DNA from: a virus
Virus record (IMG/VR): IMGVR_UViG_3300025437_000011
Span: 44,476 to 108,475 of that record
Length of the DNA stretch: 64,000 nucleotides
Reading direction: 5' to 3' (one strand)
The notes under the pieces were generated by a model. That model searched no databases. It was not told the DNA's origin and saw nothing but the letters and a program-made list of their open reading frames with translations. Position numbers and translations under genes: made by a program. Positions 5,563-49,175 of the stretch are shown piece after piece. Position 1 is the first letter of the stretch. Each line of letters opens with the position of its first letter.

Positions 5563-5577
5563 GTGTAATATATTATT

Positions 5578-7139: not shown

Positions 7140-7152
7140 GATTAGAATTTTT

Positions 7153-7341
7153 ATGGATGCAGAAAAGAAATTCAACACCTGTAAATTTAGATCTGAAAAC
7201 GAAGAAGAAAGACTCGTTAAAAAGTGTAGCTGCAAAGGGGGAGGATCAACAACTCTTACTGGATTCTTCTGCAATAAAAGACAAATCTTTAAAATTACAA
7301 AAGAAGTCTGCCAACACTGCCCCCTGTACCAGCATAAATAA
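7153..7341 (+). CDS. small Cys-rich hypothetical protein
   Basis: Six Cys including CSC and CQHC; overlaps next ORF out of frame. Confidence 0.55.
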   Translation: MDAEKKFNTCKFRSENEEERLVKKCSCKGGGSTTLTGFFCNKRQIFKITKEVCQHCPLYQHK

Positions 7342-10593: not shown

Positions 10594-10635
10594 TTTGATT
10601 TAGTTATTAAACATATATATTATATATTACACAAT

Positions 10636-10998: not shown

Positions 10999-10999
10999 A

Positions 11000-11671
11000 A
11001 TGAAAAATAATTATATTATTGGTATTTCTGGCGCGTCTGGAGTAGGAAAGACTACTCTTGCAAATTTAATTTCCTTGCTATTTAATAGAGATGAGGTATT
11101 AATTTTAAGTGGTGATGATTTACACAAATGGGAAAGGCATAGTACAAACTGGAATACATATACACACTTTCATCCCGAAGCAAACAACTTGTCTTTAGGC
11201 TTTTCCGATTTACAAAATTTAAAGAGTGGCAATTCCATAAAAAGAAAAACTTATAATCACGATACGGGATTTTTCGATGAGTATCAGCACTTTAGCCCAA
11301 AACCATATATAATATATGAAGGTCTGCATTCTTTATATGGAGAAGATATTTTAAATTTAATTGACTTAAAAATATTCATAGATACCGATAATGAATTGAC
11401 TAACGAGTGGAAAATTAAAAGAGATATTTTAAAAAGAGGATATACTACACAGCAAGTACAAGAAACAATAATTAGAAGACAGGAGGATAGACTAAAATAT
11501 ATACTTCCACAAAAAAATAACTCTGATGTAGTTTTTACTTTTAAAAAATATCATAATAAAGTTGTTTTAGATTATATATTAATTAACGAACATCATGAGG
11601 ATATAGTAAAAAAAATCAAACATCTACATGATAGTCTGGTTCCAAGTCTTGGTGATGTTACAATTATTTAA
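11000..11671 (+). CDS. phosphoribulokinase/uridine kinase family protein
   Basis: GISGASGVGKTT, GDDLHKWER, HPEANNL, YNHDTG, EGLH. Confidence 0.8.
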   Translation: MKNNYIIGISGASGVGKTTLANLISLLFNRDEVLILSGDDLHKWERHSTNWNTYTHFHPEANNLSLGFSDLQNLKSGNSIKRKTYNHDTGFFDEYQHFSPKPYIIYEGLHSLYGEDILNLIDLKIFIDTDNELTNEWKIKRDILKRGYTTQQVQETIIRRQEDRLKYILPQKNNSDVVFTFKKYHNKVVLDYILINEHHEDIVKKIKHLHDSLVPSLGDVTII

Positions 11672-11716
11672 ACTTTAGACAAATATCCCTGAACAGATTA
11701 TAATTCATATTAATTT

Positions 11717-12556
11717 ATGAAAATTATAATTCCAATGGCCGGAACTGGGGATAGGTTTGTAAAAAAAGGATACAAAGAACCCAAGCCTCTTATTAAGGTA
11801 GCCGGAAAGAGAATTATCGAATATATCTTAGATATGTTTTCCCCAACAGAAGATGAAATTATATTTATTTGCAACAACAAGCATATCGAGGAGACAAATA
11901 TGGAAACTGAGCTTAAAAAGCTAGTACCAAATTGTAAAATTGTTTCCATACCTCCACACAAAAAAGGCCCAGTTCACACCGTAAAATACGCTTTCAATCT
12001 TATTGAAGACGATGAGCATGTTATAGTATCATATTGCGACAATCCGTTAGTATGGGATAGGTCAGATTTTGAGTTAAGTGTAAGCAAACTTGCTCTAGAC
12101 GGTTGCGTCCTAACACACACAGGATTTCATCCACACACATTAAATAATACTAAAATGGCTTTTCTAAAAACCGAAAATGGTTTAATGACAGAAATAAAAG
12201 AAAAAGAATGTTATACAGATAATCCAATGAACGAGCATGCGTCTACTGGTATTTACTATTTTAATACCGGAGCAATTTTGAAAAAATATTTTCAAGAAAT
12301 AATTGATTTGGATATTAACCATAATGGAGAATACTATGTAACGTTAGTATATAACCTATTACAGCGCGATGGTCTAAGGGTTGGGTACTATGATACACCT
12401 CATGTTACGGTTTTTGGCACCCCAGAAGAAGTAGAAAATTTTGAGGCATGGAATAATATTATTACAGGCGGTCAAATAAAAAATGAAAAAGATTTAATAA
12501 ATTGCTATAATTACTGGAAGAATTATCGAAACTTTAATACTAAAAATATTCTATGA
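11717..12556 (+). CDS. sugar-phosphate nucleotidyltransferase
   Basis: IIPMAGTGDRF...PKPLI, EK, NGEYYV, FGTPEE. Confidence 0.85.
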   Translation: MKIIIPMAGTGDRFVKKGYKEPKPLIKVAGKRIIEYILDMFSPTEDEIIFICNNKHIEETNMETELKKLVPNCKIVSIPPHKKGPVHTVKYAFNLIEDDEHVIVSYCDNPLVWDRSDFELSVSKLALDGCVLTHTGFHPHTLNNTKMAFLKTENGLMTEIKEKECYTDNPMNEHASTGIYYFNTGAILKKYFQEIIDLDINHNGEYYVTLVYNLLQRDGLRVGYYDTPHVTVFGTPEEVENFEAWNNIITGGQIKNEKDLINCYNYWKNYRNFNTKNIL

Positions 12557-12996
12557 TAAAAATATCCCATCGTGGTAATATCAACAATATTGACCATACC
12601 AGAGAAAACAGTCCGTCATATATAGACGAGGCAATTCGTATGGGGTATGATGTAGAAATAGATATAAGATTTATAAACGATCAATTATATCTTGGGCATG
12701 ATATACCAGAGTATAAAATTGATATTAACTTCCTAACAAAAAGGAAAGATAACTTATGGGTACATACTAAAGATTTTAAATCCTTAAGTAGATTAATTAG
12801 TTTGCCTTTAAGAATTTTCTTTCACGAAAAAGAAGCACACACTATTATTCATAATACAAATTTAATATGGTCTCATAATCTTAATGAGTCAAATGAAAAT
12901 TCTATTATACCCCTTCTAACAAGACAGTCAATTTCAGAGTCTAGTAAATATATGCACGTATATGGAATATGCTCAGATTTTGTTGGTTTAATTTGA
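12553..12996 (+). CDS. glycerophosphodiester phosphodiesterase-like protein
   Basis: ISHRGN, ENSP, DVEIDI, LGHD, GICSD. Confidence 0.75.
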   Translation: MIKISHRGNINNIDHTRENSPSYIDEAIRMGYDVEIDIRFINDQLYLGHDIPEYKIDINFLTKRKDNLWVHTKDFKSLSRLISLPLRIFFHEKEAHTIIHNTNLIWSHNLNESNENSIIPLLTRQSISESSKYMHVYGICSDFVGLI

Positions 12997-13013
12997 TAAT
13001 ATAAATATATAAT

Positions 13014-13790
13014 ATGGATGCGATAATTCAGGGGCCAATATACGTAAATGACACTCCTAGTGTTATTTATAATTTATTAAATACGTCTTTTATTGATCGG
13101 GTAATCGTTTCTTGCTGGGAAAGTTGCCCAGATATATTTCCCCTTAATGACCGAGTGATAGTTATTAAAAATAAACCCAATGCTAATTCTGGGTATCAAA
13201 ACAGAAACTTACAAATTCAATCTACAAAAGCTGGTTTAGAAAAAGTAACTTCAGAATATTGTGCAAAATTTAGATCTGACCAGATAATTGCAATATCAAG
13301 TTTAGAAATGATGAATAGATTCTTTCATAAGTTTAAAGAATCTAATCTTAGATATACCAATGGTCTCAAACCGAAATCTAAAATTTTTGTTTGTGGAGAT
13401 TTTTGGCCATTACCATTTCATCCAAGAGATCATGTTTATTGGTCGGACACAGAAAGCATGAAAGTTTTATTTAGTTTGCCGTATGATGAATCACCAAAAT
13501 TTGATACGGAGCGCTTTAATGAGGCAACACGCGCAGAAACATATATTGGTAGTTACTATTATGCAAAATTTAATAGTGAGATCTATAAAATGATCGAACA
13601 GCAAGGTACTTACCTATGGGATAACGCCCCCAAAAGAAACGAGGCATTAGAACTATCACTTTCGATGAAAGACGAAGTTTTTAAAGTATTCCCAAGAATT
13701 GAGATGACTTGGCCCAAATATAATATCTACGGATATAAATATAATGAGCAATCAGTATGGGAAAGATGGCACGATGAAAAATGGGACTAA
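13014..13790 (+). CDS. WavE-like LPS synthesis / glycosyltransferase
   Basis: IIQGP, NRNLQIQSTKAGL, KFRSD, FHPRDH. Confidence 0.75.
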   Translation: MDAIIQGPIYVNDTPSVIYNLLNTSFIDRVIVSCWESCPDIFPLNDRVIVIKNKPNANSGYQNRNLQIQSTKAGLEKVTSEYCAKFRSDQIIAISSLEMMNRFFHKFKESNLRYTNGLKPKSKIFVCGDFWPLPFHPRDHVYWSDTESMKVLFSLPYDESPKFDTERFNEATRAETYIGSYYYAKFNSEIYKMIEQQGTYLWDNAPKRNEALELSLSMKDEVFKVFPRIEMTWPKYNIYGYKYNEQSVWERWHDEKWD

Positions 13791-13895
13791 TATGAAGACA
13801 GTTTTTATTACTACATATTCTTCCAGAAGAAATTTTAAAGAAAAAAGTTTATTTTAGATTTAAATTATTGTATACTGTAGTATATAAACACGCTT

Positions 13896-15140
13896 ATGAA
13901 TATCAAATATAGACAAACTTGCAGAATTTGTGGGAACCCTAATTTAGCACCAGTAATAGACTTGGGGAACCAGTATTTTCAAGGGTCTTTTATTAAAGAT
14001 GGCGTTACACCTCCTGCCACAAGAAAAACGCCCAACTTGATTGTTCGATGCGATACATCTAAATTCGAAGATGCGTGTGGTCTAATACAAACGCGTCATT
14101 CCGTCCCTGCTGATATATTATACAGCAACTATTGGTATCAGTCTGGTATCAGTAATACAATGAGAACTCATCTTAAAAATATTGTAGACGAATGCCTTAA
14201 AATTACCAATCTCTCCGAGGGTACTGTTCTAGATATAGCGTCAAATGACAACACTCTTTTAAGAAACTACCCCACAACTTTTAAAAAAGTTGGCGTTGAC
14301 CCCTCTGATATTGCAGGAAAACAAACTGATGAAGACATAAGAGTTATCAATACTGTTTTTCCTACGGAGAAACTTACAAATGAAAAGTTTGATATTGTAA
14401 CTTCCATAGCATGTTATTATGACGTTGAAGATCCAAAGTTTTTTGCTGAACAGGTGAGAGATCATTTAAATAATGATGGTATCTGGGTTTTTGAAGTTGC
14501 CTATTGGCCGCTAATGTTATCTAACCTATCTTATGATAGTATTGTTAATGAACATATTATTCACTATCACCTCGCCCCACTGGAGATCATGATGAATAAA
14601 ATAGGACTAAAAATTTTTAATGCAAGGAAAACCACTACAAATGGTGGAAGCATAATGGTATATATTTGCAAGTCTGAAAATACGAAATATGATCTAAAGG
14701 AAAACAAGGAGCGCCTCTTGACATTAAGACTAGAAGAATTTAATTCGGCTCTGGATGAGGAAAGCACTTATGTACTTTTTAGAGAAAAAGTCGAACAACA
14801 AAAAAATGATTTGCAATCTTTAATTAAAAAGATCCAAGCCGAAGGTAAAACCGTGCACATCTATGGTGCATCAACAAAACTTAACACCATTTTAGGATAT
14901 TGCGACCTTGGCCCAGAGTCAATAGAATATGCGGCAGAACGTAGTCCAGATAAATTTGGCGCAAAAACCATTAGCGGAATTAAACTTATTTCCGAAGAGG
15001 AGAGTCGCGCAATGAAACCAGATTATTATTTAGTTGGCCCATATCATTTTAAAGAAGAAATTCTAGCAAGAGAACAAGATACCATAAATTCTGGCACAAA
15101 GTTTATTTTCCCACTACCCACTGTGACAATAGTTGGATGA
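13896..15140 (+). CDS. NDP-sugar C-methyltransferase
   Basis: CRICG zinc site, DIASNDNTLL, DSIVNEH, GGS, YGASTK. Confidence 0.85.
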   Translation: MNIKYRQTCRICGNPNLAPVIDLGNQYFQGSFIKDGVTPPATRKTPNLIVRCDTSKFEDACGLIQTRHSVPADILYSNYWYQSGISNTMRTHLKNIVDECLKITNLSEGTVLDIASNDNTLLRNYPTTFKKVGVDPSDIAGKQTDEDIRVINTVFPTEKLTNEKFDIVTSIACYYDVEDPKFFAEQVRDHLNNDGIWVFEVAYWPLMLSNLSYDSIVNEHIIHYHLAPLEIMMNKIGLKIFNARKTTTNGGSIMVYICKSENTKYDLKENKERLLTLRLEEFNSALDEESTYVLFREKVEQQKNDLQSLIKKIQAEGKTVHIYGASTKLNTILGYCDLGPESIEYAAERSPDKFGAKTISGIKLISEEESRAMKPDYYLVGPYHFKEEILAREQDTINSGTKFIFPLPTVTIVG

Positions 15141-19405: not shown

Positions 19406-19413
19406 TATTGTAC

Positions 19414-20346
19414 ATGACTAAAACTCCAATTAAAAACTTATCTCAGACGATAAGGTCTTCTATAATAGACGATTATAAGTTAAATTATCTAACTCTAGAT
19501 AAATTGGCAGAGAAGTATAATTATAGTAATGTTGCTATAAGTAATTTTTTAAACTCTCAAAAAGTTAACAGAAGGAGTTTAACTGATTGTCATAGAAAAT
19601 ATTCTATTAATGAAAATTATTTCTCAAAAATAAACACAGAAGAAAAAGCCTATTTTTTAGGACTTTTATATGCCGATGGTTACCTAAATGAAAAACGACA
19701 TGCAATTTCACTGCAACTTCAGGAAAAAGATCGGGCAATACTAGATACCTTAAATAAATCTATAGGGTCTTCTCGCCCACTATTGTTTATTAATTCCAAG
19801 AAATATAATCCAAATTCATCCAACTGCTACAGGTTAAATATAACTAATAAAAAAATTACTGAAGATTTGCTTAATATTGGTATTTTTCAAAATAAAAGTT
19901 TATCATTAAAATTTCCTTCACGCAAAATAATTAGTAACCGTTTTTTGAATCATTTTATTCGCGGCTATTTTGATGGCGATGGATCCCAGTCTCTTTACTT
20001 TCCAAAGAGAAATAACCGTTCTAATAAATCAATGCAATCAGATATAAAAATATTATCTACTATTGAGTTTATTACCGAAGCTATTTTTAGAATGCAATCA
20101 GTAAATTCAAATTTGCAATTTTCAGTTACAAAAAGATTTAAAGACAATATAAATTGTTATAATTTAGTGGTTTCCGGAAATGCACAAGTTTTAGAATTTA
20201 TGTCGTATATATACAATAAATCTTCTATATATTTAAACAGAAAAAAGCAAAGATTTGAAGAATTTAAATCTATAGTTGCTAGTGGTAAAAATTGCAAAGC
20301 AAAGCAAAAACTAAATCTTATAAACACAAAGGCGGCTTCTGTATGA
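19414..20346 (+). mobile_element. free-standing LAGLIDADG homing endonuclease with N-terminal HTH
   Basis: AYFLGLLYADG and FIRGYFDGDGS motifs; C-terminal YLNRK. Confidence 0.9.
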
Positions 20347-21923: not shown

Positions 21924-22670
21924 ATGACACTGCCAATCTTCAGATCTAACTATTCTTTAACCTCTATACTTACTCTTGATAAGTATCAGAAGTGGCAGGA
22001 GAGAAAACCAAATCGTGCAGATTCTATCATTAATATCTGTTGCGATCTTGGACAGTCTGATGTTTTTATTGCAGAAAATAATTTAAGCGGATTAGTAGAA
22101 GCTTATGAGAATGCTAGCTCTGCCGGATTAAATTTACGCTATGGTTATCGTGTAACCGTTTGTGCTAATCTGGAATATAAAACTCCAGATTCACAGAAAA
22201 CTGAAAATAAATTAATTATCTTTGCAAAGAAGAATAGTTTTTCAGACCTAATCAAACTTCATAACCTATCAACTTCTGTTGGCAATTACGAAGGCAAGCC
22301 AAGACTAGACTATCAAACAATCAAAAAGAATTGGACAAAAAATCTGTTGATGGTTATCCCATTCTATGATTCATATATTTTTAATAATTTATTACATGGT
22401 AGCGAATGTATTCCCGATATAGATTTTGCAGATCCATATATTTGCATTGAAAATAATAATTTACCGTTTGACAGTTTAGTTAGAGATCAAATTCTTTCAA
22501 GCGTAAAATATAATCAGATTGACTCGAAAACAGTTTACTATAAGGACAAAAAAGATTTTAATGCTTATATGACCTATCGTTGCATTCTAAACCGAACAAC
22601 ATTCCAGAAGCCAGAGTTGGCACACTTTGGCAGTAATGAGTTTTGTATGGAGGCTATTTATGCAAGATAA
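21924..22670 (+). CDS. DNA polymerase III alpha, stand-alone PHP domain
   Basis: RSNYSLTSIL, LIIFAK, KPRLD, IENN, VYY; matches the DnaE N-terminal PHP domain. Confidence 0.75.
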   Translation: MTLPIFRSNYSLTSILTLDKYQKWQERKPNRADSIINICCDLGQSDVFIAENNLSGLVEAYENASSAGLNLRYGYRVTVCANLEYKTPDSQKTENKLIIFAKKNSFSDLIKLHNLSTSVGNYEGKPRLDYQTIKKNWTKNLLMVIPFYDSYIFNNLLHGSECIPDIDFADPYICIENNNLPFDSLVRDQILSSVKYNQIDSKTVYYKDKKDFNAYMTYRCILNRTTFQKPELAHFGSNEFCMEAIYAR

Positions 22671-23292
22671 TCTTTTAAGATTTAAAAAGGATCAAAAGTA
22701 TCTAGTTTTTGATACGGAAACTGAAAGCTTGAACTTGGTTAATTCTAGACCTTGGCAAATTTCTTGGGCAATTGCGCAAGGTGATAAGATTCTTAAACAC
22801 GAAGATCGTTTTGTTTATTGGGATAACCTAAAAATGTCGGATGGTGCGGCGAAGATTACCCGATTTGATCGCGCAAAATGGAACAGTAAAGCAGAAGATC
22901 CAAAGACAGTTTTAGAAGCATTTGACAAGTATCTTTATAATCCAGAATATTTAATTATTGGTGCAAACTTATTTGGTTTTGATATTTATCAGCACAATAA
23001 CGCTAGAAGAGAGATCGGGTTAAAAACTGATTATTCTTATATTAATAGGATTATTGATGTTCAGGCTCTTCAAAAAGGAATTTTTTTAGGATTAAAAACA
23101 GTTCCCGAAAACAGGACTGCTTGGCACTATCAAATGCAAAACTTCCGCCAAAGAGGGCTAAAAACTTCAGTAAAACACCTTTGTTCAGTATATGATATTG
23201 ACTATGATGAAAATAAAGCGCATGATGCAGTATATGATAATAATCTAGTTTTCTCTATTTTTAGAAAGCAGATTTATTCTATTGAAGTATGA
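22660..23292 (+). CDS. DEDDh 3'-5' exonuclease (DnaQ/epsilon-like)
   Basis: FDTETE, GANLFGFD, AHDAVYD. Confidence 0.85.
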   Translation: MQDNLLRFKKDQKYLVFDTETESLNLVNSRPWQISWAIAQGDKILKHEDRFVYWDNLKMSDGAAKITRFDRAKWNSKAEDPKTVLEAFDKYLYNPEYLIIGANLFGFDIYQHNNARREIGLKTDYSYINRIIDVQALQKGIFLGLKTVPENRTAWHYQMQNFRQRGLKTSVKHLCSVYDIDYDENKAHDAVYDNNLVFSIFRKQIYSIEV

Positions 23293-25826
23293 ACGATAAA
23301 TTTTTAAAAGAATTCGGAAAAGTAAAGATTAACAAAGTTAATCTTGTCCGTTTACCAGAGATCTCTCTTAACCAAACAGAGAAACAGGTAGTCTCAAAAA
23401 ATACAGAGACGAACGATGAATTTCTAAAACAATTAATTAATGATGGATGGAGAAAGTTTAGAGATAAGGTTTCAGAGGATAAAAAACAAGTCTACTTGGA
23501 TAGACTGAAGGAAGAGTTTTCTATTGTACAAGACTTGGGGTTTGTTGATTACTTCCTATTAGTTTGGCGCGTTATTAATAAAGCACGAGAACTTGGGGCT
23601 TTTATTGATTGGGGGCGCGGAAGTGCCGCTGGCAGTTTGATTTTCTTTTTACTTGGTGTAACAGGCGTAGACCCTGTAGATAAAAAGTTATTCTTTACGC
23701 GATTTATTTCCAAAGTTCGTGCAAAGAAAGAAGTTATTGATGGAGTTACTTATATTCAAGGTGACCTTGCGCCTGATGTTGATATTAACTTGGGCGGCGT
23801 TCGAGAAGAGATTATTCAATGGTTAAAAGAGTGCTATCCTAATAAGGTTGGCAAAATTGCCGCCCTATCCACTTTCTCTGGAAAGATTCTAGTTAAAGAT
23901 GTTTTTAAAATTATTAATGAAGCCAATGAAGAAATGGCAGTTGATCTCGCTGACACAATCGGAAAGACATTCGGAGTTGTTGAAGATATTGAAGACTCTT
24001 ATAAGAACAGTGAAAAATTTAAGCTATGGGCAGATACTTATCCAGATTCATATGCAATCGCATTAAAATTACGCGATCTTATTCGTGGAAAGTCAACCCA
24101 TGCTAGCGGTTATTTTATTTCTTATTATCCATTAGACAAGTTTGTTCCGACCGAATTAAACAAAGATGGTGAGATTTCTATCTCTTATGAGATGAATACT
24201 GCCGCAAAGTTTGGAATTAAGCTAGATCTTCTCGGCTTAACAAGTAATGAAATTATTAAGGATGTATTTGATAGGATTCCAGAGAAGCTAGAAGACATTG
24301 ATCTTGATGCTAATCCAGAAGTTTATAAACATCTTCAAAGCGATAATCTTAAACCATACGGCCTATATCAAATTAGCGCAGATTGCGCCTATAGGGTATG
24401 TCAAAAAATTAAACCAGCCAATATTCAAGAATTGAGTGATGTGAACGCTATAGCGCGACCTGGCGCCTTGGCATATGAAGATAAATATGTTTGCATGTCT
24501 GGTGAGCCTCCACATGAGAAATTGGCGCACATTTTCAAAGACAGTAGAAATCTACCTCTTTATCAAGAGCAACTAATTCAATCCCTAGTTGCGGTTGGAT
24601 TTACTCCTGATGAAGGTGAGTATATCCGAAGAATTGTCGGAAAGAAAAAGAGAGAAGAGATGCCGAAGTGGAAAGAGAAGGTATTTGAGACCTGTAACAA
24701 GAATGGTTTTGGCGATGCAGTTGCGGAGGCTATTTGGAAGGTCATGATTGATTCTGCCGACTATTCATTTAATTTGAGTCATAGCTATTCAGTTGCTTAC
24801 CTCGGCGCTCTAACTGTATATTTAAAGTATAAATATCCATTAGAATTCTATACGGCTTGTCTGAATGCTAGCCAACGTCTTCCAGATCCTATGGATGAAA
24901 TTAGGCGAATTCAGCAGGAGCTTCCGCATTTTGGAATTCAACTTCTACCGCCGCATCTTCTAAAGTCCGATATGAACTTTAAGATTGATGGTAAGAATAT
25001 TCGTTTCGGACTGAGCGCAGTCAAGGGTATTTCGGATAGCGCAATGGAAAAGCTGGTAAAGTTTCGTGGAGAATATGATAGTAAGATTGATTGTTTAGTA
25101 GCGGCAAAACAGGCCGGACTAAATATCGGTGTTCTATCCTCTCTGATTCAAGCCGGGGCATTAGATGAACTTGGAACCAAGAGAACAAGGCTTGTTCTTG
25201 AGGCCCAAACCTATAACTTACTAACAGATCGTGAAAAGCGTCTAGTTAAAACAATTCATGACGAAACCGAAGAGAAAGATATTCTTAATATTGTCAAGAT
25301 ACTAAATGAAAAGCAACAGATAAAAGATAGCCGCTTTGAAACAATTAAGTCAAAATATAATACATATAAAGATATTTATATGTTAAATTCCAGAAATGAG
25401 GAGATTACTAATTACTTCTATGAAAAGAACTGTCTTGGATTTAGTTATAGCCAAAACTTAACAACTATCTTTAAAAAGAAAAATACTGATTTTACAACAA
25501 TTCGTAATATACTAGAACATAAGAAGGAAAACGATAAGGTTATCATGGTTGGGCAAATCATTGAAAGCAAAACCTCTAAATCCAAAAATGGAAATAAATT
25601 CTTTAGGGCAGTTGTTGCAGATGATACAGGAACCATTACCACTCTACTTTTCGATGGTAAACAGGGGCTTTTTGAGGAATGTAAGGATGACAATGGTGGA
25701 AACTTTCCAGAAGAGAACGATATTGTTGCGATTAAGGGAAGAAGAAAGGGTACGGATGCCATTTTCGCTGACAAGATTGTGGTTCAAGACTGTAAGATAT
25801 ATAAAAACATGCGTGATTTAAAATGA
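23289..25826 (+). CDS. dnaE: DNA polymerase III alpha catalytic core (no PHP)
   Basis: GRGSAAGS, PDVDIN, STHASG, KLDLLGL, YQEQ, YSFNLSH, IRFGLSAVKG, C-terminal OB fold. Confidence 0.95.
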   Translation: MNDKFLKEFGKVKINKVNLVRLPEISLNQTEKQVVSKNTETNDEFLKQLINDGWRKFRDKVSEDKKQVYLDRLKEEFSIVQDLGFVDYFLLVWRVINKARELGAFIDWGRGSAAGSLIFFLLGVTGVDPVDKKLFFTRFISKVRAKKEVIDGVTYIQGDLAPDVDINLGGVREEIIQWLKECYPNKVGKIAALSTFSGKILVKDVFKIINEANEEMAVDLADTIGKTFGVVEDIEDSYKNSEKFKLWADTYPDSYAIALKLRDLIRGKSTHASGYFISYYPLDKFVPTELNKDGEISISYEMNTAAKFGIKLDLLGLTSNEIIKDVFDRIPEKLEDIDLDANPEVYKHLQSDNLKPYGLYQISADCAYRVCQKIKPANIQELSDVNAIARPGALAYEDKYVCMSGEPPHEKLAHIFKDSRNLPLYQEQLIQSLVAVGFTPDEGEYIRRIVGKKKREEMPKWKEKVFETCNKNGFGDAVAEAIWKVMIDSADYSFNLSHSYSVAYLGALTVYLKYKYPLEFYTACLNASQRLPDPMDEIRRIQQELPHFGIQLLPPHLLKSDMNFKIDGKNIRFGLSAVKGISDSAMEKLVKFRGEYDSKIDCLVAAKQAGLNIGVLSSLIQAGALDELGTKRTRLVLEAQTYNLLTDREKRLVKTIHDETEEKDILNIVKILNEKQQIKDSRFETIKSKYNTYKDIYMLNSRNEEITNYFYEKNCLGFSYSQNLTTIFKKKNTDFTTIRNILEHKKENDKVIMVGQIIESKTSKSKNGNKFFRAVVADDTGTITTLLFDGKQGLFEECKDDNGGNFPEENDIVAIKGRRKGTDAIFADKIVVQDCKIYKNMRDLK

Positions 25827-31876: not shown

Positions 31877-32413
31877 ATGCACTATCAAACCAAAGTTAAG
31901 GAGTTTATGACCACATTCGGACAGGCCTGTCCCGCAAAACCAGAAGTTCCAGAACTTAATACAAGGATTTTACGGGTAAAATTGCTCTTAGAGGAGGTTT
32001 TAGAGCTTGCCGAGGCCAGTGGATTAAAGGTTACCGACTCATTGGGCCATGATATTAGCCTATCACTCTTAAAAAATGGCAAAATTGAAATTGTAAATAA
32101 CCCAGAAATCACTCCAGACCTAGTTGGAGTAGCAGATGCGATTGCAGACATTTCCTACGTTAATTACGGCGCGGCATTGGCCTATGGAATTGATATCGAA
32201 TCAGTAGAGAATGAGGTTCACTCTTCTAATATGACCAAACTCTTCACAACAGAGGAAGTTGACCAGTTAGACAGACAAAAATTTACCTATAGTCCAGTTA
32301 AATTGTCGGGCAAGTGCCTACTAGTTAAAAACAATGACGGAAAGGTTCAGAAAAGCCCATCCTATACTCCAGCCGATATTTCAACCCTTATTAATAAGCA
32401 AATCAATGGATAA
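31877..32413 (+). CDS. MazG-like NTP pyrophosphohydrolase
   Basis: LLEEVLEL, ADAIAD, EVHSSNMTK, DGKVQK. Confidence 0.85.
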   Translation: MHYQTKVKEFMTTFGQACPAKPEVPELNTRILRVKLLLEEVLELAEASGLKVTDSLGHDISLSLLKNGKIEIVNNPEITPDLVGVADAIADISYVNYGAALAYGIDIESVENEVHSSNMTKLFTTEEVDQLDRQKFTYSPVKLSGKCLLVKNNDGKVQKSPSYTPADISTLINKQING

Positions 32414-33026
32414 CAGTGTAGAATTAATCGGTTGGTATGGCGGCGATACTGTTAATGCCTGTAGCGCATGGACTAGCACCAGTCGAGAGCTTACCGAAGA
32501 CAAGAAAGCTAGAGTCCCGGCGCTGTTAAGTATGCTAGCTGAAAATGGTCACGAGACACCTTTTGAAAAGTCAACTGTTCATTTTTTGGTTAATACCGAC
32601 ATAGCTAGCCATATTCACCTCCTAAAACATAGGATTAGTTCGCTTAATGCTGAAAGCGCAAGATATAAAGAATTAAAAGAAGATAAATACTTTATTCCAA
32701 GTGACTGGCCGCTTTATTGGCAACAAGCTTTGGAGGACTACACGAATAAGGGAAATGATTTATATCATGAATGCCTAACAAAACTAGAAGAGGCCGGAAT
32801 AGACAGAAAAAGGGCAAAAGAATCTGCCCGTTTCTTCAAAACATACAACTCACAAATTCAAGCAGATGTAATGTTTAATTTTCGGAGCTTTGTTAATTTT
32901 CAAAAATTAAGAAATTCTGAACATGCACAAGTAGAAATTAGAGATATTGCTCAAAAAATGCTTGAACAAGTCAAAAATATAGAAGGAAACCCGTTTGAAC
33001 ATACGTTAGCGGCATTTCGACTTTAA
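32406..33026 (+). CDS. thyX: flavin-dependent thymidylate synthase
   Basis: GHETPFE, KHRISSLNAESARY, AKESAR, LRNSEHAQVEIR. Confidence 0.92.
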   Translation: MDNSVELIGWYGGDTVNACSAWTSTSRELTEDKKARVPALLSMLAENGHETPFEKSTVHFLVNTDIASHIHLLKHRISSLNAESARYKELKEDKYFIPSDWPLYWQQALEDYTNKGNDLYHECLTKLEEAGIDRKRAKESARFFKTYNSQIQADVMFNFRSFVNFQKLRNSEHAQVEIRDIAQKMLEQVKNIEGNPFEHTLAAFRL

Positions 33027-34609: not shown

Positions 34610-35506
34610 TTAATTACTTAACCTTATAAATCCATTAATTTTTATAAAAATAGCCTCAAGTCCCAATAAACAATATTGAACAAAAGATATTAACGATAAT
34701 TTCCAATTATTTATTAATATCCATAAATATAGACTATTGCCATTCATTTTACATATCCTATTTATCTTGGAAACATATTTTAACATATATTCATCTCTAG
34801 TATCAGTGGAATTATAAGCAGTGATTAAAGATCTTTTTCCGGCCGCAATATTTGACCTTCGTGTTTTTGCGAGGCCATGATTCCAAACTGAGCCTTTTGA
34901 AAGTTTTTCATGCAGATCCTCTTCACTTTTAAGCATATAATGATTGATGCAAAGAATACTATCACGAGTAGACATGTATACGCTATTTTCATAGAAGCTT
35001 ATTCTATGGGGTGAACCCAAATCATTTTCATTAATTTTTTGATTTTTAATTATACTCTTACATTGAGGCTTGGGCGCAATAGAGTGTTTCATTAAATAAT
35101 TTTCCAAAACTAATCCCTGCGGCTTTGTTATATGACCATTTGTCCCAAAAATAACCCAAGGAACCCAAAAGCAATCTACTTTATTTTTATTTAAATAATT
35201 AATCAATGTTCCACGTTTTTTATATACGACGAACTCATCAACGTCAATAAATGCAGTCCATATAGATTCATTTCTATAATTCTCTACATAATGCTTATAT
35301 GCTAATTTTTGTTGCCAATCATTAAGCGGCCACTTTATATAAGTTATAATACTTTTATATTTTTTTAGTATTGGTAGCAAGTCATCAGTTGAATTGTTAT
35401 CATAAATATAAAAATGATCAAAACCAATCATTACATGATAAATAATCCACTCTTCTAGAAATGCCGCTTCATTTTTTAAAATGATACAGGCAGAAATTTT
35501 GTTCAT
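34610..35506 (-). CDS. GT-A glycosyltransferase (GT92/GT2-like)
   Basis: KNEAAFLEEWIIYH, YDNNSTD, FIDVDEF, INHY. Confidence 0.85.
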   Translation of the reverse strand: MNKISACIILKNEAAFLEEWIIYHVMIGFDHFYIYDNNSTDDLLPILKKYKSIITYIKWPLNDWQQKLAYKHYVENYRNESIWTAFIDVDEFVVYKKRGTLINYLNKNKVDCFWVPWVIFGTNGHITKPQGLVLENYLMKHSIAPKPQCKSIIKNQKINENDLGSPHRISFYENSVYMSTRDSILCINHYMLKSEEDLHEKLSKGSVWNHGLAKTRRSNIAAGKRSLITAYNSTDTRDEYMLKYVSKINRICKMNGNSLYLWILINNWKLSLISFVQYCLLGLEAIFIKINGFIRLSN

Positions 35507-36171
35507 AGAATTTCCTTGGTTTTTTTAATAATTTCTTGAAGAATTATTTTTTTTGCAGAGTCTTTAATATGAGTAGTATCTTTATCTTTTAATTTAAAAC
35601 AGAATATATCTCTGTAATCAATACCGTGAAATAGTTTTGTTACATTAATATAATTCTTACAATTTTTCTCCATTATCTCATCTAAAATTTGTCTTTCATC
35701 TATATATCCCTCAATAGTCTCCACATCGTAGAAATTAGAATTTATATGACTAAAAAATAAAATTGGTTTATTGATTCTTTTCTCTAATTTTTTTATATCG
35801 TTCATCAAATCTTCTGGCGTTTGATTTATTCTAATAGCACATGGTCTCGGACGATTTTCTCTTTCACGATTTATTTGATAATAAATATTATCCAAATTAA
35901 TTAATTTTAAGGAAGAAATTTCTATGATAACAATATCAGATTCATCTAAACATTTTTTATATGAAATGGCATTAAATTTTTCTGGATGGTACATTAAGCA
36001 TTTTGGGTGTGGCAAGCTTTCTATATTTAAGTGCCCATCAAATAAATCTAAATATGTAAATATTTCCTTTGAAGTATGGGTTAAATCATAGTTTTTTTGA
36101 AACAAATAATTTTCATTATTAAACTTATTGAAAACAGTTCGGCATGAACCAAACTGAAAGAATTTAATCAT
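35503..36171 (-). CDS. SGNH/GSCFA-like protein (paralog of 58002)
   Basis: FGSCR, HTSKE, IEISSLK, DTTH. Confidence 0.55.
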   Translation of the reverse strand: MIKFFQFGSCRTVFNKFNNENYLFQKNYDLTHTSKEIFTYLDLFDGHLNIESLPHPKCLMYHPEKFNAISYKKCLDESDIVIIEISSLKLINLDNIYYQINRERENRPRPCAIRINQTPEDLMNDIKKLEKRINKPILFFSHINSNFYDVETIEGYIDERQILDEIMEKNCKNYINVTKLFHGIDYRDIFCFKLKDKDTTHIKDSAKKIILQEIIKKTKEIL

Positions 36172-36728: not shown

Positions 36729-37610
36729 CTATTTATCTTTAGGTTTTTCATTTTGTTTATTTAATTGCTCGTAGATTTTATCGTATGCACCATATTCAAT
36801 ATTGTTCAAAAATTTTTTGACTTGTTTTTGGCGCTGTTGGTAATAGAAGTTTGGATAATCAGTATCAATCACACTGAAATTCCCTTCTTCATCTATTTCT
36901 AGAACCTGACTTAAACCGCAATCTACATTAATATTTACTGCACTCTTGAAATCAGGATCGTCCCAAATACTAATCCTACCCATAGTTGGAGTATGACCAT
37001 ATACTTGTCTAAAACTGGGAATTAAAACTGTCTCTCTTTGACTATCTAACCAAAGGATTCCGCCCTGTTTATGTGATCCTCCACGGCAACGACCCACCGC
37101 GCCGATAGTTTCATTCCAAATTCTACTATTATAATCATCTCTAGCCTTAGAAAGCTTGTCCGACATAACGTCATCATTCATTCCTTTAATAGGATGCTCA
37201 AACCAATAGGGATGAATACCCGCATGGGTAAACCAAAATCCATTTTCAAAATGCGCGAACGTGAGTTTATCCCAATCTTGGGTAAGCATAACACGATTAA
37301 TAGCGTCATCTTTTTGCATCGAGTAACCTGAACAGTTATAAATATTTTGAAGCGAACCGTTAGAGTCCTTCACGTAATTCAGATACGAATAATTAATATC
37401 GTGATTACCCATAATGTGAACACGATTAGGTTTTTGCAGTGAAGACTTTAACCATTGCGCGGTTTGGAGTGCATCTTGTGCAGTATCACCAAAGTCGTCA
37501 AAATAGTCGCCCACAAAAACAATACGATGGGTTTTCTCATAGAGAGAGGCAATTTGTTCAGCCTCGGCCCAGTGATTATGAATATCACCTATGACAATAA
37601 TTTTATTCAT
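36729..37610 (-). CDS. calcineurin-like metallophosphoesterase
   Basis: GDIH, GDYFD, GNHD, HAG, GHT. Confidence 0.9.
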   Translation of the reverse strand: MNKIIVIGDIHNHWAEAEQIASLYEKTHRIVFVGDYFDDFGDTAQDALQTAQWLKSSLQKPNRVHIMGNHDINYSYLNYVKDSNGSLQNIYNCSGYSMQKDDAINRVMLTQDWDKLTFAHFENGFWFTHAGIHPYWFEHPIKGMNDDVMSDKLSKARDDYNSRIWNETIGAVGRCRGGSHKQGGILWLDSQRETVLIPSFRQVYGHTPTMGRISIWDDPDFKSAVNINVDCGLSQVLEIDEEGNFSVIDTDYPNFYYQQRQKQVKKFLNNIEYGAYDKIYEQLNKQNEKPKDK

Positions 37611-37986: not shown

Positions 37987-38574
37987 ATGGATCATCTAAA
38001 GAACGAAACGGTTCTAGTTTTAAACCGTAACTGGCAAGCAATTCATGTGAAGAACCCGGCCGAAGCAATAACAATGATGTATTCAGATAATGCCACAGCA
38101 CTAGATATTCGTGGCGAGGATCATATGGTTCCGCTTCGTTGGAATGACTGGATTAAACTCCCAATTGATGAAGAGAGGGAAGATTTTATTCAAACTGTAA
38201 ACGGTAAGATTAAAATTCCAAAAGTTTTAGTTCTTTGCCGCTACGATAAAGTTCCAAGAAAGCGTCCGAAGTTTTCTCTTAAAGGCGTATGGGAGCGGGA
38301 TAATGGTACTTGCCAATATACCGGAAAAAAATTACACCCACATGACGCAAATATTGACCATGTAATTCCACGCTCTCGTGGTGGAAAAACCGATTGGAGT
38401 AATTGCGTCCTATCGCATAAAGAAATTAATTCAAAAAAAGCAGACAGAACTCCAGAAGAGGCCGGGCTCAAACTGTTGAGAAAACCTGCTGATCCCAAAG
38501 AGCTTCCAGCTACATTCTATATTAGAAACAAACATAATGTTCGGGAGTGGGATTTATTTTTAAATTTTAATTGA
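37987..38574 (+). CDS. HNH endonuclease
   Basis: VLVLN, RDNGTCQYTG, IDHVIPRSRGG..W.N, N..KADRTPEEAG. Confidence 0.9.
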   Translation: MDHLKNETVLVLNRNWQAIHVKNPAEAITMMYSDNATALDIRGEDHMVPLRWNDWIKLPIDEEREDFIQTVNGKIKIPKVLVLCRYDKVPRKRPKFSLKGVWERDNGTCQYTGKKLHPHDANIDHVIPRSRGGKTDWSNCVLSHKEINSKKADRTPEEAGLKLLRKPADPKELPATFYIRNKHNVREWDLFLNFN

Positions 38575-38605: not shown

Positions 38606-39343
38606 ATGGACACAAAAACTGTTAGGCTTTTAAATAAACGTTTGGCTGGGCCACGTTTTCTAAAATACGTTGATGTAAGAGATGTTGATGATTATTTTAA
38701 TTTGCCCCTAGATCAGCGCGAACGTTGGGGTTTTTATCGTAAACCGTTTGCTCTTCCAATGGACGGCTCTATTTTGGAACGCGATAAGCCACTAACAATT
38801 ACCAAAGGTTGGACAGCTTGGGAAAATGAAATTAAAAAGCAATACCCCGTTCAGTGGTTCTTTCGTGAGTGGTTCTTAAGTTGGGACAATCCAGCCTATG
38901 CCTTCCTTAAAGGATTATATTTTGATTATAATAATTTGAAGGGTACAGTAAAACGTTTTATTAAACCTTTTTACCCACGTTTTCGCAAGGCATGTCCTCG
39001 TCATAAATATTCTGACATTTCAGAACTTACACGGGAAATTAACTTCGCATTAATTCTAGATTTCTGGTATGAAGAAATGGTAGATGGAGTTGTTGATTGG
39101 CAGGATAACAATGCACATAAACAATTCTTTAAGCAGATCAAGGCCGCAGTTAAATATATTGAAGTTGACCGTCCAAAGCTAGAAGCACAATCGGATTCAG
39201 CACTAACTATTGCAACAAATAAAAAGAAGGGAACTTTTGAACAGCGTTATGGGAAACATCAGGCCCTTGAAAACAAGACGCGCGAGAAAGACACTGAACT
39301 TCTCGTTTGGATGATGCAACAAAGAGAAATGTTTTGGACATGA
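38606..39343 (+). CDS. hypothetical protein
   Basis: TTGATT(38571)-17-TAAGAT upstream; 245 aa. Confidence 0.7.
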   Translation: MDTKTVRLLNKRLAGPRFLKYVDVRDVDDYFNLPLDQRERWGFYRKPFALPMDGSILERDKPLTITKGWTAWENEIKKQYPVQWFFREWFLSWDNPAYAFLKGLYFDYNNLKGTVKRFIKPFYPRFRKACPRHKYSDISELTREINFALILDFWYEEMVDGVVDWQDNNAHKQFFKQIKAAVKYIEVDRPKLEAQSDSALTIATNKKKGTFEQRYGKHQALENKTREKDTELLVWMMQQREMFWT

Positions 39344-40344
39344 GTAAAATTTTAATTATCGAATCTACTAGCAAGACCAAGCCGCTTGCAGAAGACTTTA
39401 GCGATACTAGTATCGTTCATTGTAGAAACTCTATTATCCTAAAGAATTATCTAGGGGCCGACCTACTGGATGGTGAATATAAATTACCACAAATCGTTAA
39501 TAATAAGTATGATGTGATTATTTGTTGCTATGCTTCGCCCTATATGCCGCATATTCCATATCGGCAAATTATAGATAATAACCCCGGCGCTAGACTTGTT
39601 TGGCTAGTAAACGATCATGACCTAGAGGATAATCAGCTTCTTCGTTACGCTATTTTACAGGGTAGAACTTACGACATGATTTGCAACAATCCGAGAGGTG
39701 GTTATCGTCATTGGATTCTAGGAAAGAATATTGAAGGAAAGAAGTTAAATGACTTTATTATTAACTGGCACACAACTAATTTAAACTCTCTTATCTTTAG
39801 GGACACTAGACATCTTCCCGTTCGTGAGAATAAAAATGGTTTTATTTACTATGGAACCTACAGGAAACACCGAGCAGATGATTTTAAAGCCTTTTTACGA
39901 AAGGGCATGACAGTCTCTAGTAGCATTAAGCATTGGAAGAAGTACGAGGCAATTGGTTGCGATTCCGAATTTATTCGCCCCCTAACTTGGCAAAAAGATA
40001 ACGAAGACTTGAGAAACTATCAATACAGTCTTTATTTGGAAGATAAACACACGCATGATAATTATGCGTTCCTAGCTAATCGTTTTTATGAGGCGCTAAT
40101 GTGCGATGTTGTTACTCTATTTGCGCCCAATACAATTAATACTGTTGATCGTGCAGTAAATAGTGGACTAGAAATTCCCGCTTCAGTTATCCTACCAGAT
40201 AACTCTTACAATGGAAAAGTTCAGAAGTTCATTGAATCTCTAGATTTTAATTCGTTTATTAAATACCAAAGAGACAATTACTTTGACCAAATTTTGGCGG
40301 AGCGTGAAATGGTACTTTATGGAATTAAAGATTTTTTAAGTTAA
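39340..40344 (+). CDS. T4 beta-glucosyltransferase-like (GT63) putative DNA glycosyltransferase
   Basis: Collinear motifs KILII, YDVII, VWLVND, IYYGTYR..R, DKHTHDNY...RFYEALMCD resemble T4 BGT as recalled. Confidence 0.6.
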   Translation: MSKILIIESTSKTKPLAEDFSDTSIVHCRNSIILKNYLGADLLDGEYKLPQIVNNKYDVIICCYASPYMPHIPYRQIIDNNPGARLVWLVNDHDLEDNQLLRYAILQGRTYDMICNNPRGGYRHWILGKNIEGKKLNDFIINWHTTNLNSLIFRDTRHLPVRENKNGFIYYGTYRKHRADDFKAFLRKGMTVSSSIKHWKKYEAIGCDSEFIRPLTWQKDNEDLRNYQYSLYLEDKHTHDNYAFLANRFYEALMCDVVTLFAPNTINTVDRAVNSGLEIPASVILPDNSYNGKVQKFIESLDFNSFIKYQRDNYFDQILAEREMVLYGIKDFLS

Positions 40345-41828
40345 CCGATATAAGCAACAGTCCAGTTATCGTTACCATCAAAAATAATCGTTCCGGCTAA
40401 TACAGATAGTTTCAGGGTATCTCCTACACCCAATCTTGAAATAGTACTTACACCAGCATGATTCATAGATGTATTATTACCAAACTCTAACATGGCTTGA
40501 ACTGTAGTTGAGCTAGCACCGAGACCACTTTTTATAACAACTGCCTGACTTATAGCATTAAGACTATTACTGTTTGTTCTTGCAACCAAATGAACAGAAT
40601 AAAGTCCAGATATTGGTGCAGTAAAAATACCATTTGATTGGTTTAAAGAGTTTCCCTGCTGATAGTCTAAAGTCCAATTACCACTAGTTAATGTAGTGGT
40701 TGCGGAAACTGCGCCACCGTTACCTACAACACGAAATGCCGGACGCATGGGCATAGTCACAACCCCAAGTGGCAGATTTAAATTGCCACTTAAGTCAACT
40801 TGCATTAATTCTGTACCGCCAGATTCGTTTAGGTTTTTAGTAATGCGCCAATACTGTTTATTTGACGAACTATTATAATAAGAATCAATACCAAAATTTT
40901 TATTTCCAGAATAATAAAATAGCGTGCCCGGCGTGTCGGTCGTACCATTATCAAACATCAAGTCTCCAACATTATAACCAGCTTTTGCAAAAGTATTTTT
41001 CCCCAAAGTTGTTCCACCAGTTATAGGTAAATAACCAGTAAGAGAATTTTGAAGAGCAAAACCACTTGGATTTGACGCAGGATAAAATTGTCCAGTTTGT
41101 GAAGTTGTTACATAACTAGGAAGCGTATATGAAAAACTATTTCCAGTAGCAGAATAGCCCGGCACAAAACTCGTAACATCCCAAGTATTACTTCCACTAT
41201 TATATATAGCCCCAAAAACATCCGTAGACCCAACACCCGTACTTGCAACTAAACTTGTTGAGGCAGGAATACGGAAACCCGTTCCTAAAGATATAGGATT
41301 ATTACCCGACCCACCCTGAGTTATTCTCCAAATTTTCTTTTGACCATCAAAAAATGACCCACTGGGACTCTGTATTGTATACGAACCAGTAATTGTAGTA
41401 TTGGTTGTTACAGATATTTGATTAGCAAAAGCTAACCCACTACCATTAATATAAACTCCATTAGAAAAATTTCCACTTCCAATTACATCTAAATCATAAA
41501 CTGGAGAATTATTCTGAATACCAACCTTCCATCCTGCGGCTGGATTTAATAATAAATTATTATTTGGATAAATTGTAACATTTCCCGCCGCTCCGATTCC
41601 AAATCCGCCATACGAATTACCAATGTTAGTAGAATCTATATTAAAATATAAAGGCGTTTGGTTAATACCTATCGAACCGTTTGCCAATTGTTTTCCAGTA
41701 ATAAATCCAGAGGGATTAGAAAGTGCATAATAAAGTGATGCGGCGGTGCCAGTAGTTAAAAAAGATCCCGTATTGATCGACTGTGATGATGCAGTTGATG
41801 GATTATTTAATGTATTAAAAAATGGCAT
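40341..41828 (-). CDS. tail fibre / receptor-binding protein with C1q-like tip
   Basis: VGIQNNSPVYDLDV fibre motif; PAFRV...GIFTAPISGLY...GDTL C1q pattern. Confidence 0.75.
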   Translation of the reverse strand: MPFFNTLNNPSTASSQSINTGSFLTTGTAASLYYALSNPSGFITGKQLANGSIGINQTPLYFNIDSTNIGNSYGGFGIGAAGNVTIYPNNNLLLNPAAGWKVGIQNNSPVYDLDVIGSGNFSNGVYINGSGLAFANQISVTTNTTITGSYTIQSPSGSFFDGQKKIWRITQGGSGNNPISLGTGFRIPASTSLVASTGVGSTDVFGAIYNSGSNTWDVTSFVPGYSATGNSFSYTLPSYVTTSQTGQFYPASNPSGFALQNSLTGYLPITGGTTLGKNTFAKAGYNVGDLMFDNGTTDTPGTLFYYSGNKNFGIDSYYNSSSNKQYWRITKNLNESGGTELMQVDLSGNLNLPLGVVTMPMRPAFRVVGNGGAVSATTTLTSGNWTLDYQQGNSLNQSNGIFTAPISGLYSVHLVARTNSNSLNAISQAVVIKSGLGASSTTVQAMLEFGNNTSMNHAGVSTISRLGVGDTLKLSVLAGTIIFDGNDNWTVAYIG

Positions 41829-47659: not shown

Positions 47660-48520
47660 GTGACCGATAAAACAATATATTTTTATATTGATCCCAAATA
47701 TGGATCTGCTTACTTAAGGGGCTGGCAAGTAAGACAAAAGCTTCGCCAGTTGGGGTATAATGCGAGAATCATCACTCGTCCAAACCCAAACATTAGGGAC
47801 TCCATAATTTTTTGTGTTAAAACTCGTATATTAAATACTCAAATTTTTGATACCAGCAACTTTATTATTTGGGATTCGGTAGATTTTATTGACAGAGAAA
47901 AAAGACTGAGTGATTTTACACGTTTAGCAGATGTTGCTGATATAGTTGTTTATCATAATACAGTTCTTCCTCATTATTTTAAATCAGAGCATAACATTGA
48001 AAAGGAATATAGAATAATTCCGCACCATTGGGATGCCAGAATTCAAAATACTAAACCTCACGAAGATAAATTTTCGATTGGATACATAGGAAATGATATA
48101 TCTAGCATCCATTTGAATTTAATTCAAAATAAATATTTTATCATTGGTAAAAATTTCCTAGGTAAGCACTTCGTAGATGAACTTAATAAATATAGTTGTC
48201 ATTTTGATATAAAAGATCCAGATCATTTTAAATTTAAAACTTGTTCGGCAATGAAACTCTCAACAGCCGCCGCTGTTAATAAATGCATTATTTTAAATAA
48301 AACATGGTCAAATCTAGACCTATTACCAGAAAATTCTATACTTTTTACCGAAGACAGTAGCGAAGAGGCGGCTAGAAGTAAAATAGAAGAAATAGCTTCT
48401 ATTTATCAAACACCTGAATGGGATCATATCCTGATCGACTTACAGAAGATTAAAGAAAAAACTTCCTTGGATAATATCATTAAATTATACGAAAATATTA
48501 TTATTGAAAATGCAAACTAA
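47660..48520 (+). CDS. putative GT-B glycosyltransferase
   Basis: GSAYLRG, IPHHWD, IGYIG, KLSTAAA. Confidence 0.55.
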   Translation: MTDKTIYFYIDPKYGSAYLRGWQVRQKLRQLGYNARIITRPNPNIRDSIIFCVKTRILNTQIFDTSNFIIWDSVDFIDREKRLSDFTRLADVADIVVYHNTVLPHYFKSEHNIEKEYRIIPHHWDARIQNTKPHEDKFSIGYIGNDISSIHLNLIQNKYFIIGKNFLGKHFVDELNKYSCHFDIKDPDHFKFKTCSAMKLSTAAAVNKCIILNKTWSNLDLLPENSILFTEDSSEEAARSKIEEIASIYQTPEWDHILIDLQKIKEKTSLDNIIKLYENIIIENAN

Positions 48521-49175
48521 AGTAATCACATCAATAGTCGGAGACGGACGGGACTGGTTACATACCCCAATGCCGGAAGATAATGTAGAGTTTGTAGCAT
48601 ACACAAATCAATTTGCGCCGCATTGGACAATAAAATCACCTTGCGATATTTTTTCGGAGCCAAAAAAGAATGCTAAAATTCATAAGATTCTTTTACATAA
48701 ATATGAGGATTGCGATTACTCGATTTGGATTGATGGAAATGTAAATTTATTGCAACCTGTGAATAAAATTATTGCAGATCTTTTGGGGGATAATGACCTA
48801 GCAATTACGCAACATCCCAATAGAAATAATTTATTTGAAGAGGCTGAACATATAAAAATAAAAAAAGTAGAATATCCGCATATTGTAGACAGGCAGTTAG
48901 AAAGATACAGAAATCAAAAAGAAGAAATTATACAAGAAAATAAACTTTATTTTGCAACTGTCTTGATAAGAAAACATTCTAAAAAAATTAATCGGTTTAA
49001 TGATGCTTGGTGGGCGGAAATTTGTACAAACTCATTTCGTGACCAAATTTCTCTTCCGTATGTTCTTCGTCAATTTTCTGACCTTAAAATTAATACGTTT
49101 AATTTAGAAACAATGAACAGATATTTTCATAGAAAAGACCATCCAAGAATTACATATGGCAACAATGAAATATAA
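48510..49175 (+). CDS. DUF616-type glycosyltransferase
   Basis: SIWIDGN, HPNR, WWAEI, RDQISLPY. Confidence 0.8.
   Translation: MQTKVITSIVGDGRDWLHTPMPEDNVEFVAYTNQFAPHWTIKSPCDIFSEPKKNAKIHKILLHKYEDCDYSIWIDGNVNLLQPVNKIIADLLGDNDLAITQHPNRNNLFEEAEHIKIKKVEYPHIVDRQLERYRNQKEEIIQENKLYFATVLIRKHSKKINRFNDAWWAEICTNSFRDQISLPYVLRQFSDLKINTFNLETMNRYFHRKDHPRITYGNNEI

Follow-up and report, generated by a model that had tools for sequence, protein, structure and literature searches.

The beta-glucosyltransferase (BGT) of phage T4 glucosylates 5-hydroxymethylcytosine (5hmC) in DNA, and it belongs to a CAZy family which is exclusive to phages. The T4 alpha-glucosyltransferase (AGT) is a retaining enzyme of about 400 amino acids (aa), and to our knowledge these two are the only DNA glucosyltransferases of known structure. 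All well-understood phage DNA glycosylations known to us start from a base to which a ThyA homologue or a TET/JBP dioxygenase has added a hydroxyl or hydroxymethyl group. Here we analyzed a BGT-like glycosyltransferase (GT) gene of a phage recovered from freshwater metagenomes, the IMG/VR record IMGVR_UViG_3300025437_000011. The whole stretch of DNA that was analyzed is called the window; it has 64,000 nucleotides and corresponds to bases 44476-108475 of the linear 108,475-bp record, which is estimated to be 70% complete. The gene lies in an open frame at 39307-40344 of the window on the plus strand, where an ATG at 39340 gives a protein of 334 aa followed by a stop codon. This protein is called the window GT.

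Other phage enzymes with the GT-B fold have been described. Metavirome GT-Bs found in MT/5mYOX or ThyS clusters resemble T4 BGT with Foldseek E values of 1e-5 to 1e-7, and those which were tested depend on a co-encoded methyltransferase and dioxygenase, or on ThyS (Pyle et al., 10.1101/2023.12.21.572611). The window GT family is like them in its origin from uncultured phages and in having ParB, dCMP deaminase, terminase and secondary sugar enzymes as neighbours, but it is without those partner enzymes in 49 of 50 records. The arabinosyl-5-hydroxycytosine transferases of RB69 and DLP3 (PMC13326640) are phage GT-Bs that act on DNA, as is proposed here, and they have nucleotide-sugar supply genes (a kinase and an NTP-transferase) which are present in the window too, though elsewhere. 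Unlike the window GT, they match BshA, MshA and sucrose-phosphate synthase best in structure and not BGT, and they require a 5hodCMP synthase homologous to ThyA, an enzyme absent from the record studied here. The window GT family is the closest known relative of T4 BGT, is found in DNA-handling neighbourhoods and is almost never accompanied by a hydroxylating partner.

Relationship to T4 BGT

Searches of single sequences and family databases did not find the relationship. The window GT and the 245-aa protein encoded directly upstream of it gave no match in Pfam (E values up to 0.1), PHROG or NCBIfam, a six-frame search of the record gave no match to PF09198, the family of T4 BGT, and among the PDB sequences neither phmmer with the single protein nor hmmsearch with a profile of 45 homologues matched BGT, giving noise only. 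The alignment of these 45 homologues (A1) was compared by hhalign with a profile of seven true BGTs (A2) from T4-like, Acinetobacter, Serratia, Salmonella, Enterococcus and Lactobacillus phages, the T4 reference being b-gt of NC_000866 (351 aa). The two profiles were aligned from end to end (residues 3-327 against 1-352, 309 columns) with a probability of 96.4% and an E value of 1.4e-9, far above what chance would give; the identity to T4 BGT is 13-15%. The T4 BGT peptides with which the original prediction had compared the gene (KIAII, NDYDRLIVVNSS, IYYLFTD, IYGGSFRSGQR and IGDKNYNDNFITLRVWETMASD) are all present in T4 BGT, hhalign pairs them with the window peptides in the collinear order proposed there, and the similar length is borne out by 334 against 351 aa.

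The two domains contribute unequally to this result. The C-terminal sugar-donor domain alone is aligned with BGT at a probability of 96.7% and an E value of 4.6e-10, whereas the acceptor-side N-terminal domain alone reaches 26% and 7e-4 against the BGT N-domain. Since the signal is carried by the C-domain and is weak in the N-domain, homology to BGT is established and the identity of the acceptor is not; as judged from sequence, BGT-likeness is firmly supported for the donor half only, and the acceptor half is weakly BGT-like.

The structural comparison gave the same family. PF09198 is the nearest named family in the ESM Atlas. With the AlphaFold2 (AF2) model of the window GT (pLDDT 94.4, pTM 0.91), structures of T4 BGT were the top four Foldseek matches in the PDB (TM 0.64-0.70). 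VIA-align was run twice, as a re-alignment of Foldseek's top 1,000 and against all 48,161 representative chains, among which T4 BGT was first and T4 AGT second. In the two runs respectively, T4 BGT had Z 22.6 (rmsd 3.0, 302 residues) and 22.0 and T4 AGT had Z 18.7 (about 308 residues aligned) and 18.5, while the best generic GT-B had Z 16.6 in both. AGT is thus the second-best structural match and is also a DNA-acting GT-B, but the match is clearly weaker than that to BGT and there is no detectable sequence similarity. Because the best structural match is a DNA enzyme, the surface-glycan GT-B which the original prediction had named as the contrary outcome did not take the first place. These profile and model comparisons confirmed the window GT as a remote homologue of T4 BGT, with a predicted compact, stand-alone GT-B (Leloir-type) fold.

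Residues important in T4 BGT were located in the window GT through the hhalign alignment. Asp92 corresponds to Asp100, which we take to be the catalytic base of T4 BGT (Lariviere et al. 2003), and the position is D or E in 45 of the 45 A1 sequences. According to the PDB entry titles, D100A is the mutation in T4 BGT structures among the Foldseek matches. Arg175, Arg248 and Glu251, all invariant in A1, correspond to Arg191, Arg269 and Glu272, and Arg178 is one position off Arg195; these four T4 residues presumably bind UDP (Morera et al.). Thr173 corresponds to Ser189, and Asp235-Lys236 to Asp258-Lys259. Unlike BGT, in which Glu22 is invariant, the window GT has at that position His27, which is conserved in at least 90% of A1, and other residues of its N-domain are conserved than in BGT. 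Alignment and predicted model together have shown a GT fold, a donor half with the Arg/Arg/Glu constellation of BGT and an acidic residue, Asp92, at the catalytic-base position. The donor chemistry of the enzyme can be inferred from this and the acceptor cannot, since the acceptor side differs from BGT (His27 for Glu22, other N-domain residues) and no gp42-like enzyme is encoded.

The isoelectric point (pI), also tried as a proxy for DNA binding, was uninformative, as true BGTs alone cover a range of pI 5.2-9.1.

The GT family and its gene neighbourhoods

The phage family founded by the window GT is large, has no annotation and occurs in uncultured phages of freshwater. A 90%-clustered collection contained 121 homologues, at least 372 loci were found in IMG/VR, and when 1.84 billion representatives were searched exhaustively with a profile, 689 clusters (50% identity) were obtained at E<=1e-3 and 214 at E<=1e-30. 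The members are nearly all stand-alone proteins of 300-340 aa; fused forms of greater length were looked for without success. The family is like BGT in its phage-only distribution and unlike it in its occurrence in freshwater phages of the DnaE type and of a small siphovirus-like type.

Among cultured phages only three of the Straboviridae have a homologue, namely Cronobacter phages S13 and LPCS28 and Citrobacter phage Ci1, in a shortened form with 29% identity. In these T4-like phages the gene sits between uvsY and uvsW, and the protein (in S13, S13_057 at L001 5869-6720) has 283 aa and is without the first about 75 residues. S13 may serve as a tractable cultured model of the family, because it has a canonical td-type ThyA only and no BGT.

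The neighbourhoods of the relatives were compared for genes that go along with the GT. The run of HNH gene, 245-aa gene and GT gene is kept in the loci of the three closest relatives. A dCMP-deaminase gene lies just upstream of the GT in two lineages; in the most often recovered related lineage the GT stands at the border of the tail module with a dCMP-deaminase-like gene just upstream. In loci L009 and L014, the latter from the 98% complete genome, the GT is found between genes for ERF or RecT, a DUF2800 nuclease and DnaB or a DnaC-like loader. ThyX is encoded within 2-6 kb of GT homologues in other lineages, and in nine distant-branch loci the GT is followed by a Metallophos gene at a distance of about 0.8 kb.

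The distant branch, whose GTs are about 30% identical to the window GT, has a further arrangement. In 32 of its 80 loci a gene with a ParB_N domain (PF02195, 36.5 bits) is directly upstream of the GT, with genes for a small HTH protein and the large terminase downstream (for example L233 9393-10906 and L224 1456-3000). PF02195 was not found in the record studied here or in its nearer lineage. Four of these ParB-GT genomes are at least 91% complete and are without ThyA, TET and ThyX. Many phages carry ParB-methyltransferase genes at a position like that of ParB-GT. ParB, dCMP deaminase and terminase are typical neighbours of phage DNA-glycosylation genes (10.1101/2023.12.21.572611), and surveys connect the first two of these with clusters for DNA hypermodification in phages (10.1101/2023.12.21.572611; 10.1101/2025.08.14.668559).

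One distant-branch locus, L202 from IMG/VR record G037, has a GT with 33% identity to the window GT and, about 420 nt upstream of this gene, a divergent ThyA homologue which keeps the catalytic Cys and the dUMP-type Asn. The surrounding cluster (3148-13245) encodes two sulfotransferases, an NAD-dependent sugar epimerase, two asparagine-synthase-like proteins and a radical-SAM protein. It is a candidate new pyrimidine hypermodification cluster, and its gene content hints at a sulfated or amidated sugar on DNA of the 5-hydroxymethyluracil (5hmU) type.

A separate observation was made in the most often recovered freshwater lineage, where a CsgF, CsgG, FecR-domain protein and CHASE2-adenylate/guanylate cyclase operon lies downstream of the GT (L067 12655-17852); this operon is an unusual phage cargo.

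Evidence for and against a DNA target

The best explanation of these data, which we hold with about even confidence, is that the window GT glycosylates DNA. The enzyme would use a host NDP-hexose, most simply UDP-glucose, and after replication it would transfer the sugar with inversion onto a nucleobase of the double-stranded phage DNA, the target base being flipped into the interdomain cleft in a BGT-like manner. Such glycosylation may shield the phage genome from host nucleases. A DNA target is plausible, being supported by the kinship with BGT and AGT, by the catalytic and donor residues and by the contexts of the relatives, which include ParB and terminase, recombination and replication modules, a dCMP-deaminase neighbour and the one ThyA cluster. 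Of the original prediction, the BGT-like GT-B is upheld, and the modification of DNA by it is plausible but unproven.

Several results weigh against a DNA target. Besides the weak N-domain match, they concern chiefly the making of an acceptor, for which the record itself and 49 related IMG/VR records (15 nearer and 34 distant-branch; nine at least 90% complete) were searched. The ThyA family (PF00303) was found neither in the record itself nor in any of the 15 nearer relatives, which include 89% and 98% complete genomes; it was found in one of the 34 distant-branch relatives and in none of the eight of those that are at least 90% complete. As a positive control, the same model detects gp42 beside bgt in T4, and it detects ThyA homologues not more than about 1 kb from the true BGT genes of Lactobacillus phage ATCCB and Enterococcus phage VPE25. 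TET/JBP (PF12851) was absent from all 50 records, a search in which no positive control rang, and divergent phage 5mYOX dioxygenases are known to escape PF12851 (10.1101/2025.08.14.668559). The 2OG-Fe(II) oxygenase family (PF13640) was absent from 16 of 16 records (the record itself and the nearer relatives), and C5-methyltransferase (PF00145) was absent from the record itself, the sole one searched for it. ThyX (PF02511) is present in the record and in some relatives and absent from nine of nine near-complete GT-bearing genomes.

The original prediction had found no hydroxymethylase or TET gene in the window and had taken thymidylate to come from ThyX; both statements agree with our searches, the former for the whole 108,475-bp record, in which no ThyA-family, TET/JBP or C5-methyltransferase match was found. 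T4-type 5hmC is excluded as the acceptor, because no gp42-like enzyme is encoded. Judged by these gene searches, the GT family, unlike every true BGT examined, is not tied to a known hydroxy(methyl)pyrimidine maker, and in particular the window GT has no adjacent gp42-type ThyA homologue. In the metavirome survey about 65% of the GT contigs were without ThyS or 5mYOX, and such contigs were judged less likely to act on DNA (Pyle et al., 10.1101/2023.12.21.572611). As the partner enzymes are lacking in 49 of 50 records, the present family falls in this 'orphan' class, which was left unexplained in that survey. Two further points against a DNA target are the other glycan genes, in which the window is rich, and the tail-fibre genes, which the GT gene abuts. 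Finally, hhalign among the neighbour clusters showed no gene that neighbours the GT in all lineages.

One proposal, which is tentative and in our opinion rather unlikely in its full form, is that the family glycosylates DNA without any hydroxy(methyl)pyrimidine made by ThyA or TET. Either the acceptor chemistry would be new, with for instance a canonical base as the direct target, or the GT would act on the product of an undiscovered hydroxylase, for which the 245-aa protein is one candidate, and in the sister branch a ParB-like clamp may guide the GT along the DNA just before packaging.

Among the other explanations, the one which survives best is that a BGT-derived GT acts on a virion surface protein (tail fibre or capsid) or on a host envelope glycan, its gene being one among the phage's numerous genes for glycosylation; we regard this explanation as possible, though doubtful. 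The nucleotide-sugar pathway and several other GTs of the window fit with it, as do the convergent position of the GT to tail-fibre-like genes, its place at the tail-module border in the most often recovered related lineage, and the sulfotransferase genes which adjoin GT homologues in L115 and L202. The lack of a hydroxylated-base pathway in 49 of 50 records and the only weakly BGT-like N-domain also speak for a non-DNA acceptor. On the other hand, in structure the GT is nearest to the two DNA glucosyltransferases, by a clear margin over the surface-glycan GT-Bs, and in small, near-complete genomes its neighbours are ParB and terminase genes or genes for recombination and replication.

It is also conceivable, but improbable in our estimate, that the GT acts early on some other cellular target, such as a host protein, RNA or tRNA, or a small nucleotide signal, for take-over or counter-defence. 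A stand-alone gene that moves among unrelated phage backbones with changing neighbours, often in early or replication regions and without a co-encoded acceptor-making enzyme, would suit such a role. The ParB_N coupling and the terminase adjacency point instead to DNA, nothing speaks positively for any particular target, and we know of no precedent for such a target in the BGT/AGT structural clade.

Glycosylation of DNA by the window GT, if correct, would point to either a new acceptor or a new hydroxylase, and to DNA hypermodification being widespread in freshwater phages. If instead the GT does not act on DNA, the BGT scaffold has come into use for targets other than DNA, and caution would be needed in annotating a 'DNA glucosyltransferase' from the fold alone.

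The CG-free segment

The last 3 kb of the contig (61,001-64,000) contains 3 CG dinucleotides against about 83 expected; the change is abrupt and GC dinucleotides are normal. The segment noticed in the original prediction is therefore real, but the proposal made there, that cytosine hypermodification by the GT explains it, did not hold. The segment is 21 kb from the GT gene. No CG-free zone was found in four other GT-bearing whole records (89%, 98%, 48% and 46% complete), where the two had been expected to co-occur, nor in 1.74 Mb of related loci, and searches of five related records gave no DNA homologue of the segment. The 61.2-63.5 kb piece is a separate contig in two runs, and bridging of the junction is not shown in public contigs; the segment may be a chimeric join or a foreign insert. 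The glycosyltransferase gives no mechanism for the loss of CG from a 3-kb stretch, and the two should be treated as independent observations.

A pathway of methyltransferase, TET and GT for sequence-specific, post-replicative cytosine hypermodification that accounts for the segment is hardly credible, since, although the GT is BGT-like and the segment exists, the record has neither PF00145 nor PF12851, the 49 relatives have no PF12851, and the co-occurrence result, the distance, the position at the contig end and the lack of a homologue all contradict it.

Features of the locus

The phage record encodes DnaB, a primase, a DnaE-type polymerase, ribonucleotide reductase, ThyX and a MazG-like protein, so that the original description of a DnaE-type phage was right. 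The start codon of the GT shares ATGA with the stop codon of the upstream 245-aa open reading frame (ORF), which is a translational-coupling arrangement, and the 3' end of the convergent tail-fibre-like gene overlaps the GT stop by 4 nt. This convergent gene is a module boundary, and it is not kept as a GT neighbour in other lineages. A scan for promoters and terminators around the GT gene gave results at chance level. The features are listed in Table 1.

Table 1. Features of the window, with positions counted from its first nucleotide
Feature	Position	Strand	Basis or remark
BGT-like GT-B glycosyltransferase, coding sequence (predicted)	39340..40344	+	ORF, model, T4 BGT as top structural match, hhalign; alternative TTG start at 39307
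N-terminal acceptor-side Rossmann domain, residues 1-160 (predicted)	39340..39819	+	His27 codon 39418-39420; Asp92 codon 39613-39615; residue map from hhalign
C-terminal nucleotide-sugar donor domain, residues 161-334 (predicted)	39820..40341	+	motifs YYGTYRKxR, EDxHTHxNYxxLANRFYE
Donor-domain codons R175; R178; R248; E251	39862-39864; 39871-39873; 40081-40083; 40090-40092	+	
245-aa helical protein, candidate partner	38606..39343	+	ATGA overlap with GT
HNH endonuclease, opens same-strand run HNH - partner - GT	37987..38574	+	PF13395, PF01844, phrog_16726
Calcineurin-like metallophosphoesterase, recurrent neighbour of GT homologues	36729..37610	-	PF00149
MazG-like NTP pyrophosphohydrolase	31877..32413	+	PF01503; overlaps ThyX
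ThyX	32334..33026	+	PF02511; nucleotide-metabolism context
Convergent tail-fibre-like gene	40341..41828	-	ORF list; weak C1q hint only
GDP-mannose 4,6-dehydratase	6084-7139		
PRK-like (PRK/uridine-kinase-like) kinase + NTP-transferase	10985-12556		
WavE	13014-13790		
Sugar C-methyltransferase	13896-15140		
GT2	34610-35506		
TOD1/MUCI70-like GT gene	48504-49175		

The 245-aa candidate partner is an aromatic-rich, helical protein with 54 homologues and the motifs YPxQWFFREW, PRxRKxxPRH and NFALILDFWYEE. Its homologue is directly upstream of a GT homologue in six loci (L096-L101). In 13 very distant loci (L115-L127) the partner has 30-36% identity, abuts genes for ThyX and UvdE endonuclease and is preceded, at a distance of 3 kb on the same strand, by a GT homologue; in 30 other partner loci no GT was found within 6 kb. 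The AF2 model of the partner has a pLDDT of 87.5, and its fold gave no Foldseek match at E<=1e-3 and only generic helical hairpins (Z about 8) in the wide VIA-align search. Prediction of a complex of the GT with the partner gave a score of 0.00, which has no bearing either way. S13_056, the protein encoded upstream of the GT homologue in Cronobacter phage S13, was considered as a relative of the partner and is unrelated.

Other observations were made in the window. A weakly TviD-like ORF was seen within 34610-36171, among the dense set of glycan genes (6084-15140, 34610-36171 and 48504-49175). The DnaE-type polymerase core is at 23289-25826, and a separate PHP domain is encoded apart from it at 21924-22670. 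A LAGLIDADG-domain ORF was found between the genes for the primase and a PD-(D/E)XK nuclease, in the gene stretch 19408-20346.

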